From Escherichia coli (GTDB taxonomy: Bacteria; Pseudomonadota; Gammaproteobacteria; Enterobacterales; Enterobacteriaceae), in NCBI RefSeq assembly GCF_003334335.1, contig NZ_QOWQ01000015.1: a stretch of DNA of 64,000 nt; one strand, written 5' to 3'. A program made the position numbers and the translations under genes. Positions 3,155 to 28,382 of the stretch are shown one piece after another; within the stretch, counting starts at the first letter, position 1; each line of letters opens with the position of its first letter. The notes beneath the pieces were generated by a model, which was given only the letters and a program-made list of their open reading frames with translations, did not search any database and had not been told where the DNA came from.

Positions 3155-3829
3155 ATGCGATATCCGGTTGATGTATACACAGGCAAGATTCAGGCTTATC
3201 CCGAAGGCAAACCCAGCGCAATTGCTAAAATCCAGGTTGATGGTGAGTTGATGCTGACGGAGCTGGGGCTGGAAGGTGACGAGCAGGCGGAGAAAAAGGT
3301 TCACGGCGGGCCAGACAGAGCGCTGTGTCATTATCCTCGTGAGCATTATCTCTACTGGGCGCGGGAATTTCCGGAACAGGCGGAGTTGTTTGTTGCGCCT
3401 GCGTTTGGTGAAAACCTCTCAACCGACGGCCTGACGGAAAGTAATGTTTATATGGGCGATATTTTCCGCTGGGGAGAGGCATTAATTCAGGTCAGCCAGC
3501 CGCGCTCGCCTTGCTATAAACTCAATTACCATTTTGATATCAGCGATATAGCGCAGTTGATGCAAAACACAGGTAAGGTGGGGTGGTTGTATAGCGTGAT
3601 AGCGCCAGGGAAAGTGTCTGCGGACGCGCCGCTGGAGTTGGTTTCCCGTGTCAGCGATGTGACCGTGCAGGAGGCTGCCGCCATCGCATGGCATATGCCG
3701 TTTGATGACGATCAATATCACCGTTTACTCTCCGCTGCCGGGTTATCGAAAAGCTGGACGCGGACGATGCAAAAGCGCCGACTGAGCGGCAAGATCGAAG
3801 ATTTTTCCCGCCGGTTGTGGGGAAAATAA
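3155..3829 (+). CDS. yiiM: MOSC-domain protein (6-N-hydroxylaminopurine resistance)
   Basis: ORF track 3125..3829; start moved to ATG 3155 (MRYPVDVYTGK..) with ggagaggg SD; 224 aa. Confidence 0.88.
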   Translation: MRYPVDVYTGKIQAYPEGKPSAIAKIQVDGELMLTELGLEGDEQAEKKVHGGPDRALCHYPREHYLYWAREFPEQAELFVAPAFGENLSTDGLTESNVYMGDIFRWGEALIQVSQPRSPCYKLNYHFDISDIAQLMQNTGKVGWLYSVIAPGKVSADAPLELVSRVSDVTVQEAAAIAWHMPFDDDQYHRLLSAAGLSKSWTRTMQKRRLSGKIEDFSRRLWGK

Positions 3830-3843
3830 CCCCCGGAGTGTAG

Positions 3844-3923
3844 GCCTGATAAGACGCTATCAGCGTCGCATCAGGCATCCTGCTCAAATGCCGGATGCGG
3901 CGTAAACGCCTTATCCTGCCTGC
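3844..3923. repeat. REP/BIME palindromic element pair (yiiM-cpxA intergenic)
   Basis: GCCTGATAAGACGCTATCAGCGTCGCATCAGGC and GCCGGATGCGGCGTAAACGCCTTATCC.. imperfect palindromes of REP type. Confidence 0.8.
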
Positions 3924-3934
3924 AAATGCGAAGT

Positions 3935-5308
3935 TTAACTCCGCTTATACAGCGGCAACCAAATCACCAGCCGTAAACCGCCCAGCGGGCTGTCTTCTGC
4001 CTTCACCCAGCCACGATGCTGCTGAATGGCGGTTTCAACAATCGCCAGCCCCAAACCTGTACCGCCAGATTCACGATCGCGTGCTTCATCGGTACGATAG
4101 AACGGACGGAAAATCTGTTCGCGATCTTCCGGGCTAACGCCAGGACCATCGTCGTCCACCGTAATGGTGATACCGTCTTTATCTACCGCAAAGCCCACTT
4201 CAATCTTCGTATGGGAATAACGCAGAGCATTACGAACAATGTTTTCCAGCGCACTTTCCAGGGCGTTCGGATTGCCGTACAGCGGCCACGGCCCAGGCGG
4301 GAAGTTAACTGTCAACGACTTGCCCATTTGCTCGGCTTCGAACGCCGCGTTATCCAGCACTTCACTCCACAACTGGTTGGCTTTGATGGTTTCGCTAACC
4401 AGCGCGTTTTTTTGCTGATTACGTGACATCACCAACAGATCGTTGATCATGCTGTCCAGACGTTGCGCTTCGGTTTCAATACGCTCCAGTTCCTTGCTTT
4501 CACCGCTACGACGGCGCAGTAACGCCGTACCCAGTTGCAGACGCGTCAGCGGGGTGCGCAGCTCGTGAGAGATATCAGAAAGCAGACGCTGCTGAGAGGT
4601 CATCATGCGCTCCAGCGCGGTGACCATCTGGTTAAAACTGGCACCTGCGGCAAGGAATTCCTGTGGCCCCGCTTCCAGTTCCGGGTGCTGGCGTAAGTTT
4701 CCCTGGGCAACTTCATCGGCAGCGTTTTTCAGCTTACGCGCCGGTTTTGCCAGACTCCAGGCCAACCACAACAGCAGCGGCGTACTGACCAACATGGTGA
4801 CAATCAGCAGTAATAGCGGGCGGTCAAACAGTAAGTTAATGAAATCGGATTGAGAACTGCTGGCCGGACGAATCAGATAAAGTTGGTAATTATCTTCGCC
4901 ATCACGCACGGAGAACGGACCGACCAGTTCCACGCGGCCATACTTTTTCTTCTGCGGATGATCGGCGTTATCGGCCTGACCAATAAAGTTACGAATGATC
5001 TGCATTTCGCTGCGTTCAGCGCCGATCACGCGGCCTTCGGTGGTCACCAATAACAAACGCTGTCCTGGCGGTGCCCACTTATCAATCGCCCGGAACAGAC
5101 GCCGCCACCACATTAAATCGTTGGGCGGATCGTTCGCCAGCTCCGCTTCGACATGCTGCTCAATCATCAGCCCCTGACGCTGTTCGCTATCCAGAAGCTC
5201 GGTCATCTGGCGTGAATCGAGCTTGGGTAACATCAAAACCAACATCAACACCAGCGCCAGCGTCAGCCAGAAGATGGCGAAGATGCGCGCGGTTAAGCTG
5301 CCTATCAT
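3935..5308 (-). CDS. cpxA: Envelope-stress sensor histidine kinase CpxA
   Basis: ORF track 457 aa, MIGSLTARIFAIFWLTLALVLM..; HisKA H-box region SDISHELRTPLTRL visible; overlaps cpxR stop by 4 nt. Confidence 0.95.
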   Translation of the reverse strand: MIGSLTARIFAIFWLTLALVLMLVLMLPKLDSRQMTELLDSEQRQGLMIEQHVEAELANDPPNDLMWWRRLFRAIDKWAPPGQRLLLVTTEGRVIGAERSEMQIIRNFIGQADNADHPQKKKYGRVELVGPFSVRDGEDNYQLYLIRPASSSQSDFINLLFDRPLLLLIVTMLVSTPLLLWLAWSLAKPARKLKNAADEVAQGNLRQHPELEAGPQEFLAAGASFNQMVTALERMMTSQQRLLSDISHELRTPLTRLQLGTALLRRRSGESKELERIETEAQRLDSMINDLLVMSRNQQKNALVSETIKANQLWSEVLDNAAFEAEQMGKSLTVNFPPGPWPLYGNPNALESALENIVRNALRYSHTKIEVGFAVDKDGITITVDDDGPGVSPEDREQIFRPFYRTDEARDRESGGTGLGLAIVETAIQQHRGWVKAEDSPLGGLRLVIWLPLYKRS

Positions 5309-6003
5309 GAAGCAGAAACCATCAGATAGCCGCGACCACGCAAGGTTTTAAACCACGGGTGACCATCTTTACGATCCGGCAGTTTACGACGCAGGTTGGA
5401 AATGTGCATATCAATAGCGCGGTCGAAAGGCGTCAGGCGTTTGCCCAACACTTCCTGGCTTAAATGTTCACGGGAAACCACCTGACCCAGATGCTGTGCC
5501 AGCAAATAGAGCAGGGTAAACTCAGTACCGGTTAACTCCAGCGTTTGCCCGTCGAAGCTGGCTTCCTGACGGCCTGGATTCAGCACTAAGGCATCAACTT
5601 CCAGTGTCGGTGAACCGTTGTCGTTGTTTTGCTGTTGCTCGCTCCAGTGCGAACGGCGCAGGATCGCGCGAATACGTGCCACCAGCTCACGATCATTAAA
5701 CGGTTTCGGGAGATAGTCATCTGCGCCCAGCTCAAGGCCGAGAACGCGATCAAGTTCACTGCCGCGCGCCGTCAACATAATGACAGGCGTCTGGTGTGTC
5801 TGGCGAAGTGCTTTTAATGTGTCGATACCATTTTTCTTCGGCATCATTACGTCAAGCAAAAGTAAATCAATGCTGTCGTCCAGAAGATCAAGCGCCTGTT
5901 CCCCATCGTGGGCAACAATCACGTTGAAGCCTTCCATCTCGAGCAGCTCCTTTAATAGGGAAGTCAGCTCTCGGTCATCATCAACTAACAGGATTTTATT
6001 CAT
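5305..6003 (-). CDS. cpxR: Response regulator CpxR (OmpR family)
   Basis: ORF track 232 aa, MNKILLVDDDRELTSLLKELL..; receiver domain plus winged-helix C-terminus. Confidence 0.95.
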   Translation of the reverse strand: MNKILLVDDDRELTSLLKELLEMEGFNVIVAHDGEQALDLLDDSIDLLLLDVMMPKKNGIDTLKALRQTHQTPVIMLTARGSELDRVLGLELGADDYLPKPFNDRELVARIRAILRRSHWSEQQQNNDNGSPTLEVDALVLNPGRQEASFDGQTLELTGTEFTLLYLLAQHLGQVVSREHLSQEVLGKRLTPFDRAIDMHISNLRRKLPDRKDGHPWFKTLRGRGYLMVSAS

Positions 6004-6058
6004 TGTTTAAATACCTCCGAGGCAGAAATTACGTCATCAGACGTCGCTAATCCATGAC

Positions 6059-6073
6059 TTTACGTTGTTTTAC
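6059..6073 (-). promoter_or_regulatory. CpxR-P box (GTAAA-N5-GTAAA) in the cpxP / cpxRA divergent control region
   Basis: Reverse complement of 6059..6073 is GTAAAACAACGTAAA, an exact tandem-pentamer CpxR consensus; another GTAAA half-site at 6105..6109. Confidence 0.65.
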
Positions 6074-6152
6074 ACCCCCTGACGCATGTTTGCAGCCTGA
6101 ATCGTAAACTCTCTATCGTTGAATCGCGACAGAAAGATTTTGGGAGCAAATG

Positions 6153-6653
6153 ATGCGCATAGTTACCGCTGCCGTCATGGCCTCAACGCTGGCAGTCAGT
6201 TCATTAAGCCACGCTGCTGAAGTCGGTTCAGGCGATAACTGGCATCCGGGTGAAGAACTTACGCAGCGCAGTACGCAGAGCCATATGTTCGACGGCATAA
6301 GTTTAACCGAACATCAGCGTCAGCAGATGCGAGATCTTATGCAACAGGCCCGGCACGAACAGCCTCCTGTTAATGTTAGCGAACTGGAGACAATGCATCG
6401 CCTTGTCACCGCAGAAAATTTTGATGAAAACGCTGTGCGCGCACAGGCAGAAAAAATGGCGAATGAGCAAATTGCTCGTCAGGTTGAGATGGCAAAAGTC
6501 CGCAACCAAATGTATCGCCTGTTAACGCCGGAGCAGCAAGCGGTTTTAAACGAGAAACATCAACAACGAATGGAGCAGTTGCGTGACGTGACGCAATGGC
6601 AAAAAAGTTCATCGTTGAAGCTATTGAGTAGTAGCAACTCACGTTCCCAGTAG
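6153..6653 (+). CDS. cpxP: Periplasmic Cpx-pathway inhibitor/chaperone CpxP
   Basis: ORF track 6150..6653; start at second ATG gives 166 aa ([21 protein letters not shown] signal peptide); divergent from cpxRA. Confidence 0.92.
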
Positions 6654-6662
6654 TAAACCCTG

Positions 6663-6720
6663 TTTTCCTTGCCATAGACACCATCCCTGTCTTCCCCCAC
6701 ATGCTGTGGGGGTTTTTTTT
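6663..6720 (+). ncRNA. cpxQ: CpxQ, 3'UTR-derived sRNA processed from the cpxP mRNA
   Basis: cpxP 3' UTR TTTTCCTTGCCATAGACACCATCCCTGTCTTCCCCCACATGCTGTGGGGGTTTTTTTT ends in the cpxP terminator; identity from recalled literature, boundaries approximate. Confidence 0.55.
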
Positions 6721-6721
6721 A
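6694..6721 (+). terminator. Rho-independent terminator of cpxP (3' end of CpxQ)
   Basis: CCCCCACATGCTGTGGGGG hairpin followed by eight T. Confidence 0.7.
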
Positions 6722-6801
6722 TCCTCAATTTGCCTGCTGCTTAATGCATTGCAGATGATTTGCTTCCGTTATACTAGCGTCAGTTGATAGCGGGAGTATT
6801 T

Positions 6802-7704
6802 ATGAATCAATCTTATGGACGGCTGGTCAGTCGGGCGGCGATTGCTGCGACGGCGATGGCTTCGCTGCTATTGCTGATTAAAATTTTTGCATGGTGGTAT
6901 ACCGGGTCGGTGAGTATTCTCGCCGCGCTGGTGGATTCGCTGGTGGATATCGGCGCGTCGTTGACGAATTTATTGGTGGTGCGATATTCCCTGCAACCTG
7001 CCGACGATAATCACTCGTTTGGTCACGGTAAAGCTGAGTCCCTCGCGGCGCTGGCGCAAAGTATGTTTATCTCCGGTTCGGCACTATTCCTGTTTTTGAC
7101 GGGTATTCAACATCTGATATCTCCAACACCGATGACAGATCCAGGCGTCGGGGTTATCGTGACAATTGTGGCGCTAATTTGTACGATTATCCTTGTCTCG
7201 TTTCAGCGTTGGGTGGTGCGGCGGACGCAAAGCCAGGCGGTGCGGGCTGATATGCTACATTACCAGTCTGATGTTATGATGAACGGCGCAATTCTGCTGG
7301 CGCTGGGGTTGTCCTGGTACGGCTGGCATCGCGCCGATGCTCTGTTTGCATTGGGAATCGGCATCTATATTTTATATAGCGCGTTACGCATGGGATATGA
7401 GGCGGTACAGTCATTACTGGATCGCGCATTGCCTGATGAGGAACGGCAAGAAATTATTGATATCGTGACTTCCTGGCCGGGTGTTAGCGGCGCTCACGAT
7501 CTTCGCACGCGGCAGTCAGGGCCGACCCGCTTTATTCAGATTCATTTGGAAATGGAAGACTCTCTGCCTTTGGTTCAGGCACATATGGTGGCGGATCAGG
7601 TAGAGCAGGCTATTTTACGGCGTTTTCCGGGATCGGATGTAATTATCCATCAGGACCCCTGTTCCGTCGTACCCAGGGAGGGTAAACGGTCTATGCTTTC
7701 ATAA
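6802..7704 (+). CDS. fieF: Cation diffusion facilitator Fe/Zn efflux pump FieF (YiiP)
   Basis: ORF track 6784..7704; start moved to ATG 6802 ([13 protein letters not shown]..), 300 aa, gggag SD upstream. Confidence 0.92.
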
Positions 7705-7884
7705 TCAGTATAAAAGAGAGCCAGACCCGCATTTTGTGTATAAAATACCGCCATTTGGCCTGACCTGAATCAATTCAGCAGGAAGTGATTGTTATACTAT
7801 TTGCACATTCGTTGGATCACTTCGATGTGCAAGAAGACTTCCGGCAACAGATTTCATTTTGCATTCCAAAGTTCAGAGGTAGTC

Positions 7885-8847
7885 ATGATTAAGAAAATCG
7901 GTGTGTTGACAAGCGGCGGTGATGCGCCAGGCATGAACGCCGCAATTCGCGGGGTTGTTCGTTCTGCGCTGACAGAAGGTCTGGAAGTAATGGGTATTTA
8001 TGACGGCTATCTGGGTCTGTATGAAGACCGTATGGTACAGCTAGACCGTTACAGCGTGTCTGACATGATCAACCGTGGCGGTACGTTCCTCGGTTCTGCG
8101 CGTTTCCCGGAATTCCGCGACGAGAACATCCGCGCCGTGGCTATCGAAAACCTGAAAAAACGTGGTATCGACGCGCTGGTGGTTATCGGCGGTGACGGTT
8201 CCTACATGGGTGCAATGCGTCTGACCGAAATGGGCTTCCCGTGCATCGGTCTGCCGGGCACTATCGACAACGACATCAAAGGCACTGACTACACTATCGG
8301 TTTCTTCACTGCGCTGAGCACCGTTGTAGAAGCGATCGACCGTCTGCGTGACACCTCTTCTTCTCACCAGCGTATTTCCGTGGTGGAAGTGATGGGCCGT
8401 TATTGTGGAGATCTGACGTTGGCTGCGGCCATTGCCGGTGGCTGTGAATTCGTTGTGGTTCCGGAAGTTGAATTCAGCCGTGAAGACCTGGTAAACGAAA
8501 TCAAAGCGGGTATCGCGAAAGGTAAAAAACACGCGATCGTGGCGATTACCGAACATATGTGTGATGTTGACGAACTGGCGCATTTCATCGAGAAAGAAAC
8601 CGGTCGTGAAACCCGCGCAACTGTGCTGGGCCACATCCAGCGCGGTGGTTCTCCGGTGCCTTACGACCGTATTCTGGCTTCCCGTATGGGCGCTTACGCT
8701 ATCGATCTGCTGCTGGCAGGTTACGGCGGTCGTTGTGTAGGTATCCAGAACGAACAGCTGGTTCACCACGACATCATCGACGCTATCGAAAACATGAAGC
8801 GTCCGTTCAAAGGTGACTGGCTGGACTGCGCGAAAAAACTGTATTAA
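7885..8847 (+). CDS. pfkA: 6-phosphofructokinase I
   Basis: ORF track 7789..8847 over-extended; true start ATG 7885 ([23 protein letters not shown]..) with gaggt SD; 320 aa. Confidence 0.96.
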
Positions 8848-8902: not shown

Positions 8903-9003
8903 TGCCTGATGCGCTTCGCTTATCAGGCCTACATGAATTCTGCAATTTATTGAATTTGCAAACTTTTGTAGGCCGGATAAGGCGTTCGCGCCGCATCCGG
9001 CAT
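8903..9003. repeat. BIME (two inverted REPs with central linker), pfkA-sbp intergenic
   Basis: GCCTGATGCGCTTCGCTTATCAGGCCTAC ... GTAGGCCGGATAAGGCGTTCGCGCCGCATCCGGCA. Confidence 0.85.
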
Positions 9004-28284: not shown

Positions 28285-28382
28285 GCCGGATGCGGCGTGA
28301 ACGCCTTATCCGGCCTACAAGTTCGTGCAAATTCAATAAATTGCAATATGACGTAGGCCTGATAAGCGTAGCGCATCAGGCG
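28285..28382. repeat. BIME (two inverted REPs), yiiX-metJ intergenic
   Basis: GCCGGATGCGGCGTGAACGCCTTATCCGGCCTAC ... GTAGGCCTGATAAGCGTAGCGCATCAGGC; near-identical to the copy at 38122..38219. Confidence 0.85.

Follow-up and report, generated by a model that had tools for sequence, protein, structure and literature searches.

Is the short sequence behind the cpxP stop codon of Escherichia coli merely the transcription terminator of that gene, or does it also encode a second regulatory product of the Cpx response? We addressed this question in a contiguous stretch of 64,000 nucleotides of E. coli DNA (the window), for which an earlier note, made from the letters alone, had placed the small regulatory RNA CpxQ and an intrinsic terminator in the cpxP 3′ UTR. 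Sequence comparison revealed that window 3333-8833 is 100% identical to positions 4103000-4108500 of NC_000913.3 (E. coli K-12 MG1655). The curated feature “ncRNA cpxQ, b4716, small regulatory RNA CpxQ” extends there over 4106330-4106387, which corresponds to window 6663-6720, and 58 of the 58 nt match the annotated b4716. The identification made in the note was therefore correct, the release of this RNA by RNase E and Hfq being already published, and the species of about 60 nt which it had anticipated, with a 5′ end near 6663, is annotated in NC_000913.3 as an RNA of 58 nt with its 5′ end at exactly 6663.

Window 6663-6720 is almost certainly the cpxQ gene of E. coli K-12, whose RNA is made by RNase E/Hfq processing of the cpxP mRNA and pairs with other mRNAs. 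The window element agrees with the known CpxQ RNAs (E. coli K-12 b4716 and Salmonella CpxQ) in its position after cpxP, its terminator, its seeds and its targets; no difference from them was found, the sole peculiarity being the K-12 loop base C6704. The primary paper on the Salmonella RNA is reportedly that of Chao and Vogel, in Molecular Cell in 2016. CpxQ is the textbook case of a regulatory RNA excised from the 3′ end of an mRNA, and its gene after cpxP is well studied and already known, so that the locus offers no new biology. Its value is that of a positive control for genome scanning, since an experimentally validated sRNA was placed at the correct base by inspection of the sequence and nothing else.

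The ORF list places cpxA (3935-5308) and cpxR (5305-6003) on the minus strand, and cpxP, which provides the parental mRNA of CpxQ, on the plus strand at 6153-6653 (b4484 in NC_000913.3; its homologues are named “cell-envelope stress modulator CpxP”). The cpxQ gene immediately follows the stop codon of cpxP and shares its strand, and cpxR-cpxA is oriented divergently on the upstream side; this arrangement recurred in 80 Enterobacteriaceae loci and in more distant ones. Downstream of cpxQ come fieF, starting with an ATG at 6802, and then pfkA. A minus-strand match to the CpxR-P box consensus GTAAA-N5-GTAAA (GTAAANNNNNGTAAA) was found at 6059-6073, in the interval between cpxR and cpxP and 80-94 nt ahead of the start codon of cpxP. 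It is the only perfect match in the 64 kb window, for 0.04 expected by chance; the consensus is said to have been defined by De Wulf et al. in 2002 (cited in PMC4817254). Judging from its sequence and position, this box would be the transcriptional input driving cpxP, and hence CpxQ.

The cpxP stop codon, TAG, occupies 6651-6653 and is directly followed by an in-frame TAA (6654-6656), then by ACCCTG and TTTTCCTTGCCATAGACACCATCCCTGTCTT. The spacer separating the stop codon from the mature 5′ end (6654-6662, plus strand) contains the upstream half of the putative processing site, ACCCUG|UUUUCC. Mature CpxQ (6663-6720, 58 nt, plus strand), recognized both by its identity with b4716 and by a score of 93.8 bits with our covariance model R1, begins with an unpaired 5′ seed, UUUUCCUUGCCAU (6663-6675). 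A second conserved segment follows, AGACACCAUCCCUGUCUU (6676-6693), which may form a small hairpin and ends U-rich beside the terminator. The terminator stem-loop, with 8 bp and a 3-nt loop, spans 6694-6712 and was recovered by folding, by the terminator scan and by covariation. Finally, the U8 tail (6713-6720) marks the end of intrinsic termination and is the expected binding site for the proximal face of Hfq, whose role is described in the literature (PMC5222698, PMC9438474).

In the stem, CCCCCACA (6694-6701) pairs with TGTGGGGG (6705-6712) around the loop TGC (6702-6704), six of the eight pairs being G-C, and the T8 run extends over 6713-6720. The stable stem-loop with U8 reported in the note is thus present, although the length of 68 nt it gave from the cpxP stop to the end of the T-run has to be corrected to 67 nt (6654-6720), as T8 stops at 6720 and base 6721 is an A. 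The 68-nt stretch 6654-6721 folds with a minimum free energy of -17.4 kcal/mol (z = -2.41 against 200 shuffled sequences, 4 of which were as stable). Both strands of the 64 kb window were then scanned with strict terminator criteria, namely a perfect stem of at least 7 bp with at least 5 G-C pairs and a T-run of at least 7. Three sites were obtained (cpxQ, OxyS and 14881-14860), compared with none in 100 first-order Markov simulations. The site at 14860-14881 on the minus strand is a very strong intrinsic terminator with a 9-bp stem and T7; by offset from the annotation of strain Yu5, it falls right behind glpX, where glpFKX ends.

The pyrimidine-rich single-stranded stretch described in the note was also recovered. 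Pyrimidines make up 74% of 6663-6693, and the first 13 nt of the RNA (6663-6675) are predicted to be fully unpaired in its mature form, with an unpaired probability of ~1.0. Over 6676-6692, a weak 5-bp hairpin, AGACA/UGUCU, is possible in the minimum free energy fold. Its columns are essentially invariant, with one G-C to G-U change, and the comparison consequently neither supports nor refutes it.

One genome of each species was scanned with the CpxP protein as anchor, yielding 80 Enterobacteriaceae cpxP loci with CpxP 62-100% identical. Divergence was sampled by this genome scan and a search of representatives, a single-protein homologue search having returned CpxP relatives of at least 88% identity alone. 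The block CC(C)TGTTTT(T)CCTTGCCATAGACACCATCCCTGTCTTCCCC follows cpxP in 80 of the 80 loci, and divergence starts right after the T-run. Relative to the window, and over 79 aligned sequences (the window and 78 Enterobacteriaceae species), identity was 99.3% for 6659-6693, 99.1% for the T-run and 89.1% for the stem-loop, compared with 76.5% for the last 177 nt of cpxP, 61.6% for the third codon positions of these 177 nt and 44.7% for 6721-6800. Conservation climbs from 6656 on, to 89-100%; the seed is 100% conserved, the second segment 99-100% and the U8 tail 95-100%. The 24-mer CCTTGCCATAGACACCATCCCTGT is unchanged in all 81 sequences (the window and the 80 loci). That the seed regions are more conserved than the cpxP coding sequence has also been stated elsewhere (PMC9438474). 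Within the otherwise divergent cpxQ-fieF spacer, a conserved island is visible at 6765-6775 (72-92% identity in the 79 sequences, 56% at one position), and it contains TATACT, a candidate -10 element of fieF about 27 nt upstream of the ATG at 6802.

In these Enterobacteriaceae loci, the distance from the stop codon to the block varies, the T-run beginning 56-75 nt past the stop, while the sequence of the block stays constant, which argues against a coding or stop-codon-linked explanation. A coding potential of the cpxQ region was accordingly rejected, frame 0 having two stops in addition to this variable distance. The minus-strand ORFs 6406-6702 and 6560-6700 overlap cpxP and were taken as spurious. 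With covariance model R1, built from the Enterobacteriaceae sequences, the element was also recognized immediately after cpxP in more distant loci, which keep the cpxA-cpxR/cpxP synteny and whose CpxP is 48-54% identical.

The terminator helix evolves in another way. Among 24 distinct sequences, four of its pairs have changed on both sides, for example from A-U to U-A or C-G at 6699/6707; 94% of cells are paired, versus 42-61% when the 3′ partner is slid, and none of 500 shuffles reached the observed covariation score. An invariant unpaired sequence beside a covarying stem is the signature of a base-pairing sRNA, and not of a mere terminator. Within E. coli, a match to 6651-6723 of at least 99% identity was obtained in 895 of the 5426 complete genomes and one of 95-99% in 4522; in the listed examples of the latter group a single base differs, and the one example checked carries A6704. 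The loop base C6704 (ATGCTG) of K-12 is replaced by A in this example, an E. coli O145 strain, and A also occupies the position in each of the 80 other species representatives and in the phage cores that matched. In E. coli, C6704 represents the less frequent allele.

RNase E cleavage, Hfq dependence and regulation in vivo are taken here from the literature, our own observations concerning the identity with the annotated gene, the terminator, the conservation of the unpaired part, the covariation of the stem and the complementarity to published targets. CpxQ has been described as an Hfq-dependent sRNA of ~60 nt, cut by RNase E from the cpxP mRNA, with Hfq both directing the cut and shielding the product; in Salmonella, mutation of the conserved cleavage site abolished CpxQ and affected the cpxP mRNA little (PMC9438474). 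The two experiments envisaged in the note had already been done: the processing site was seen by TIER-seq, in a study which defined the RNase E motif as RN|WUU with a critical U at +2 (PMC5222698), and endogenous E. coli CpxQ was detected by Northern blot, with a half-life >16 min, a natural 5′ monophosphate and repression of nhaB (PMC10250213). The phenotypes of an E. coli ΔcpxQ strain and the repression of Skp have been studied directly as well (PMC4817254). At the window site, CUG|UUUU, four of the five positions of the motif fit, with U at +1, +2 and +3, and a U instead of a purine at -2.

Combined with the layout of the locus, these reports suggest the following pathway. Transcription from the CpxR-activated cpxP promoter would run through cpxP and stop at the intrinsic terminator (6694-6720). 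RNase E, aided by Hfq, would then cut the mRNA between 6662 and 6663, a few bases past the stop codon, and the cut would free a stable 58-nt RNA bearing a 5′ monophosphate. Hfq would be bound by the terminator hairpin and the U8 tail, leaving the invariant pyrimidine-rich part (6663-6693) to base-pair with mRNAs, among which nhaB, skp, agp, ydjN and fimA have been reported, cfa being added later (PMC9438474). Pairing is expected to block the translation of these targets or to promote their decay by RNase E. A single Cpx-induced transcript would in this way yield two products serving the Cpx envelope-stress response, the protein CpxP in the periplasm and, in the cytoplasm, a riboregulator protecting the inner membrane. 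The same logic applies to SroC (from gltI), SdhX (from sdhCDAB-sucABCD) and NarS (from narK), namely cleavage by RNase E close to the stop codon, the terminator of the mRNA itself, Hfq binding and pairing in trans (PMC9438474, PMC5222698). These RNAs differ from CpxQ, whose mRNA is monocistronic, in parental genes, seeds and regulons, and have no sequence relationship with it.

Complementarity to the published targets was evaluated on E. coli sequences from NC_000913.3, using RNAduplex against shuffled seeds and a test for contiguous helices. CpxQ nt 3-13 can form an 11-bp helix with the Shine-Dalgarno region of skp (p = 0.04), and nt 1-11 another of 11 bp with positions -16 to -6 of nhaB (p = 0.003). 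The site in the translation-initiation region of nhaB has been described as not conserved in E. coli (PMC10250213), and given this report the match at -16 to -6 may not be used there. Pairing of nt 5-14 with the nhaB coding sequence at +306 to +315 reached -11.7 kcal/mol, with a borderline contiguous helix (p = 0.06); to about 1 base of numbering, it agrees with the coding-sequence duplex reported around nhaB position 312 (PMC10250213). For the 5′ UTR of cfa, on which a CpxQ footprint and mutations abolishing regulation have been published (bioRxiv 10.1101/271551), the two conserved segments together gave a duplex with z = -3.7 (0 of 500 shuffles), and the contiguous-helix test was not significant (p = 0.54). 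Duplex energies computed with the whole seed did not surpass those of shuffled seeds for skp, nhaB and cpxP (z of -0.5 to -1.1), a comparison which is uninformative because large internal loops inflate the null. The statistics of the short helices are modest, some of them not significant, and are consistent with the pairing mechanism without proving it.

Automated annotation and Rfam still miss CpxQ. The note had predicted that an ORF-only annotation would overlook it, and this was borne out: the cpxP 3′ region is contained in all 5426 complete E. coli genomes, and the PGAP-annotated RefSeq entries listed (22) and the one region inspected show the cpxP CDS alone there. At gathering score, no Rfam 15 family matches the cpxQ site and none does so on the sense strand, Rfam 15 holding no CpxQ family. 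In a permissive scan, RF02628 (Hrs1) aligned to the cpxQ bases on the minus strand (window 6648-6720) with 41.4 bits, for a gathering score of 56.4. Other permissive matches at the site, such as NsiR1 and anti-hemB, are generic terminator look-alikes and were disregarded. RF02628 passes its threshold in three distant loci, with 64.6-83.4 bits and on the strand opposite to cpxP (L088 2011-2084, L089 2029-2101 and L090 2005-2078).

The hrs1 gene of Erwinia amylovora is situated in the cpxP-fieF interval, in the orientation of its two neighbours, and encodes an Hfq-dependent RNA of ~74 nt with a rho-independent terminator, detected by Northern blot and called Erwinia-specific (Zeng and Sundin, PMC4070566). 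Hrs1 resembles CpxQ in its dependence on Hfq, its position in the cpxP-fieF interval, its orientation and its rho-independent terminator, and the Rfam model aligns to the same bases. It differs in its annotated form, 16 nt longer at the 5′ end, and in the strand matched by the model, opposite to cpxP. Since position and orientation are shared and RF02628 aligns to the CpxQ bases, Hrs1 is evidently the Erwinia orthologue of CpxQ. The RF02628 model, which starts with A7 followed by the stem, appears to have been built on the antisense strand; its failure on the transcribed strand reflects how the model was built and not biology.

Analysis of the E. coli genomes revealed another feature of the locus. 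In ~835 of the 5426 complete genomes (~15%), the match to 6600-6800 is split into two places overlapping by 47 bp. In strain Yu5, a P2-like prophage of 29.7 kb is inserted between cpxP and fieF, encoding an integrase, a C-like repressor, Cox and a replication endonuclease through ogrK, and lies between direct repeats with the sequence of window 6677-6723. This 47-mer, composed of the 3′ 44 nt of cpxQ and ATC, was located at L083 1058-1104 and 30792-30838 and at L097 1801-1847. Sixty-two phage records match the stretch, including Wphi, fiAA91-ss, R18C and several Yersinia phages; in Wphi and the other free-phage genomes among the matches listed, the match is confined to the 47-mer (query 23-69; 97.9%, one mismatch), which in Wphi sits between ogr and int. 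Wphi-type P2-like (Peduovirus) phages use window 6677-6723 as the 47-bp core of their attB site, and the site is unoccupied in this window.

P2-type insertion sites have been listed as rybB, cyaR and “cpxP-fieF, Wphi1” (PMC3032704), and the Wphi site was mapped to MG1655 position 4104392 in old coordinates (PMC3448106), the cpxP-fieF site being described as intergenic or between genes (PMC3032704, PMC3448106). The attachment core lies in fact inside the cpxQ sRNA gene and not in intergenic DNA, and our literature search found no paper joining CpxQ with an integrase and a prophage. As for cyaR/ryeE and rybB, which serve as attB for P2-like phages, and for tRNA and tmRNA sites, phage and host share a long identical core, from which a complete RNA gene is restored at one of the junctions; unlike cyaR/ryeE and rybB, the cpxP-fieF site is the one that the literature treats as intergenic. 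For database curators, this attachment site within cpxQ and the antisense Hrs1 model of Rfam are minor points.

After integration, cpxQ is restored in full at attL, and attR, upstream of fieF, carries a 3′ fragment that lacks a promoter. Because the core (6677-6723) is located inside cpxQ, the 3′ 44 nt of CpxQ are phage-derived in lysogens, comprising the second segment, the terminator and the Hfq tail. The copy at attR, if transcribed by read-through from the prophage, or the one at the attP of the free phage, if transcribed, could give a truncated CpxQ-like, Hfq-binding RNA that competes with CpxQ or mimics it. We consider this improbable; if true, lysogeny and the Cpx response could be connected in this way. 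The ogr mRNA of Wphi might have been expected to end at the CpxQ-like terminator, but a hairpin followed by a T-run stands immediately behind ogr, upstream of the core. This terminator of its own makes such an end of the ogr mRNA less likely and argues against read-through from ogr into the core copy. In several unrelated genera, “ATCAATnACTTAC...” or “ATCAGGTACTTAGAAAAAATC” follows the cpxQ T-run in place of the fieF-proximal spacer (loci L003, L008, L013, L014, L018, L024, L030, L033, L041 and L075-L079). The sequence ATCAA(A/T)nACTTACAT is also that of the phage side of attL in an E. coli lysogen and of Wphi. On the basis of this shared sequence, the species representatives concerned probably harbour, at the cpxQ site, a P2-like prophage or a related island.

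The constancy of the sequence downstream of cpxP could have other causes than selection on a trans-acting RNA, beginning with the terminator itself, since every gene needs one and a canonical hairpin with U8 ends a monocistronic gene here. A bare terminator of cpxP, in a 3′ UTR devoid of any function of its own, would however need its structure and not its sequence, and it is the stem that varies, by compensatory changes, whereas the 35 nt before it are 99.3% invariant in the 79 sequences, against 76.5% for the coding part, and persist at ~50% CpxP identity. As trans-acting effects of CpxQ are moreover published, there is next to no chance that the site is a terminator and nothing else. The attachment site offers a different account of the conservation, in which P2-like phages bearing the same 47-mer would overwrite and homogenise the locus, making a host function unneeded. 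Window 6677-6723 equals the Wphi-type attP core, a prophage of some 30 kb occupies the site in ~835 of the 5426 E. coli genomes, and the majority loop allele, A6704, is that of the phages. The invariant block begins nevertheless at ~6659, 18 nt upstream of the phage core, the seed (6663-6676) is equally invariant outside it, and the conservation reaches distant loci in which the terminator half is unlike the phage core. An equal conservation of 6659-6676 in lineages that Wphi-type phages do not infect would contradict homogenisation, and it is partly visible in those loci. As conserved RNA genes are typically what phages select for attachment, causality more likely runs in the reverse direction, and homogenisation by phages is a very improbable source of the pattern.

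Two further alternatives accept the RNA and dispute either its origin or its role. CpxQ could arise as a primary transcript, initiated at a promoter within the terminal part of cpxP, as for a type I 3′-UTR sRNA like MicL, and internal promoters are known for some 3′-UTR sRNAs (PMC9438474). Our scan of 5900-7000 revealed no sigma-70-like promoter upstream of 6663, which is a weak test, but the literature reports a natural 5′ monophosphate and a requirement for both RNase E and a mutable cleavage site, and an independent origin is hardly credible. More weight may be given to an action mainly in cis, on the stability of the cpxP mRNA or on CpxP yield. In E. coli, addition of the cpxP 3′ region lowers CpxP and ΔcpxQ raises it, an effect which needs the coding region of the signal sequence (PMC4817254). 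Against a predominant cis role, no notable complementarity was detected between CpxQ and the cpxP 5′ region (z = -0.57), trans targets are documented by footprints and mutants (PMC10250213, 10.1101/271551), and the Salmonella cleavage-site mutation barely affects the cpxP mRNA (PMC9438474). We regard a mainly cis-acting element as unlikely, and the effect on CpxP as at most an additional role of the trans-acting CpxQ RNA, not an alternative to it.

Several other Rfam families matched elsewhere in the window at gathering score. These comprise the OxyS sRNA (58741-58850, minus strand), the ClpQY (hslVU) promoter element (22618-22675, minus strand), the L31 ribosomal-protein leader (27287-27339, plus strand) and a cobalamin riboswitch (63840-64000, plus strand), which is cut by the end of the window. 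REP-like naRNA4/ES036 elements were likewise found at 3843-3920 and 8925-8966 on the minus strand and at 28319-28360 on the plus strand. All of these matches are expected features of this K-12 region.
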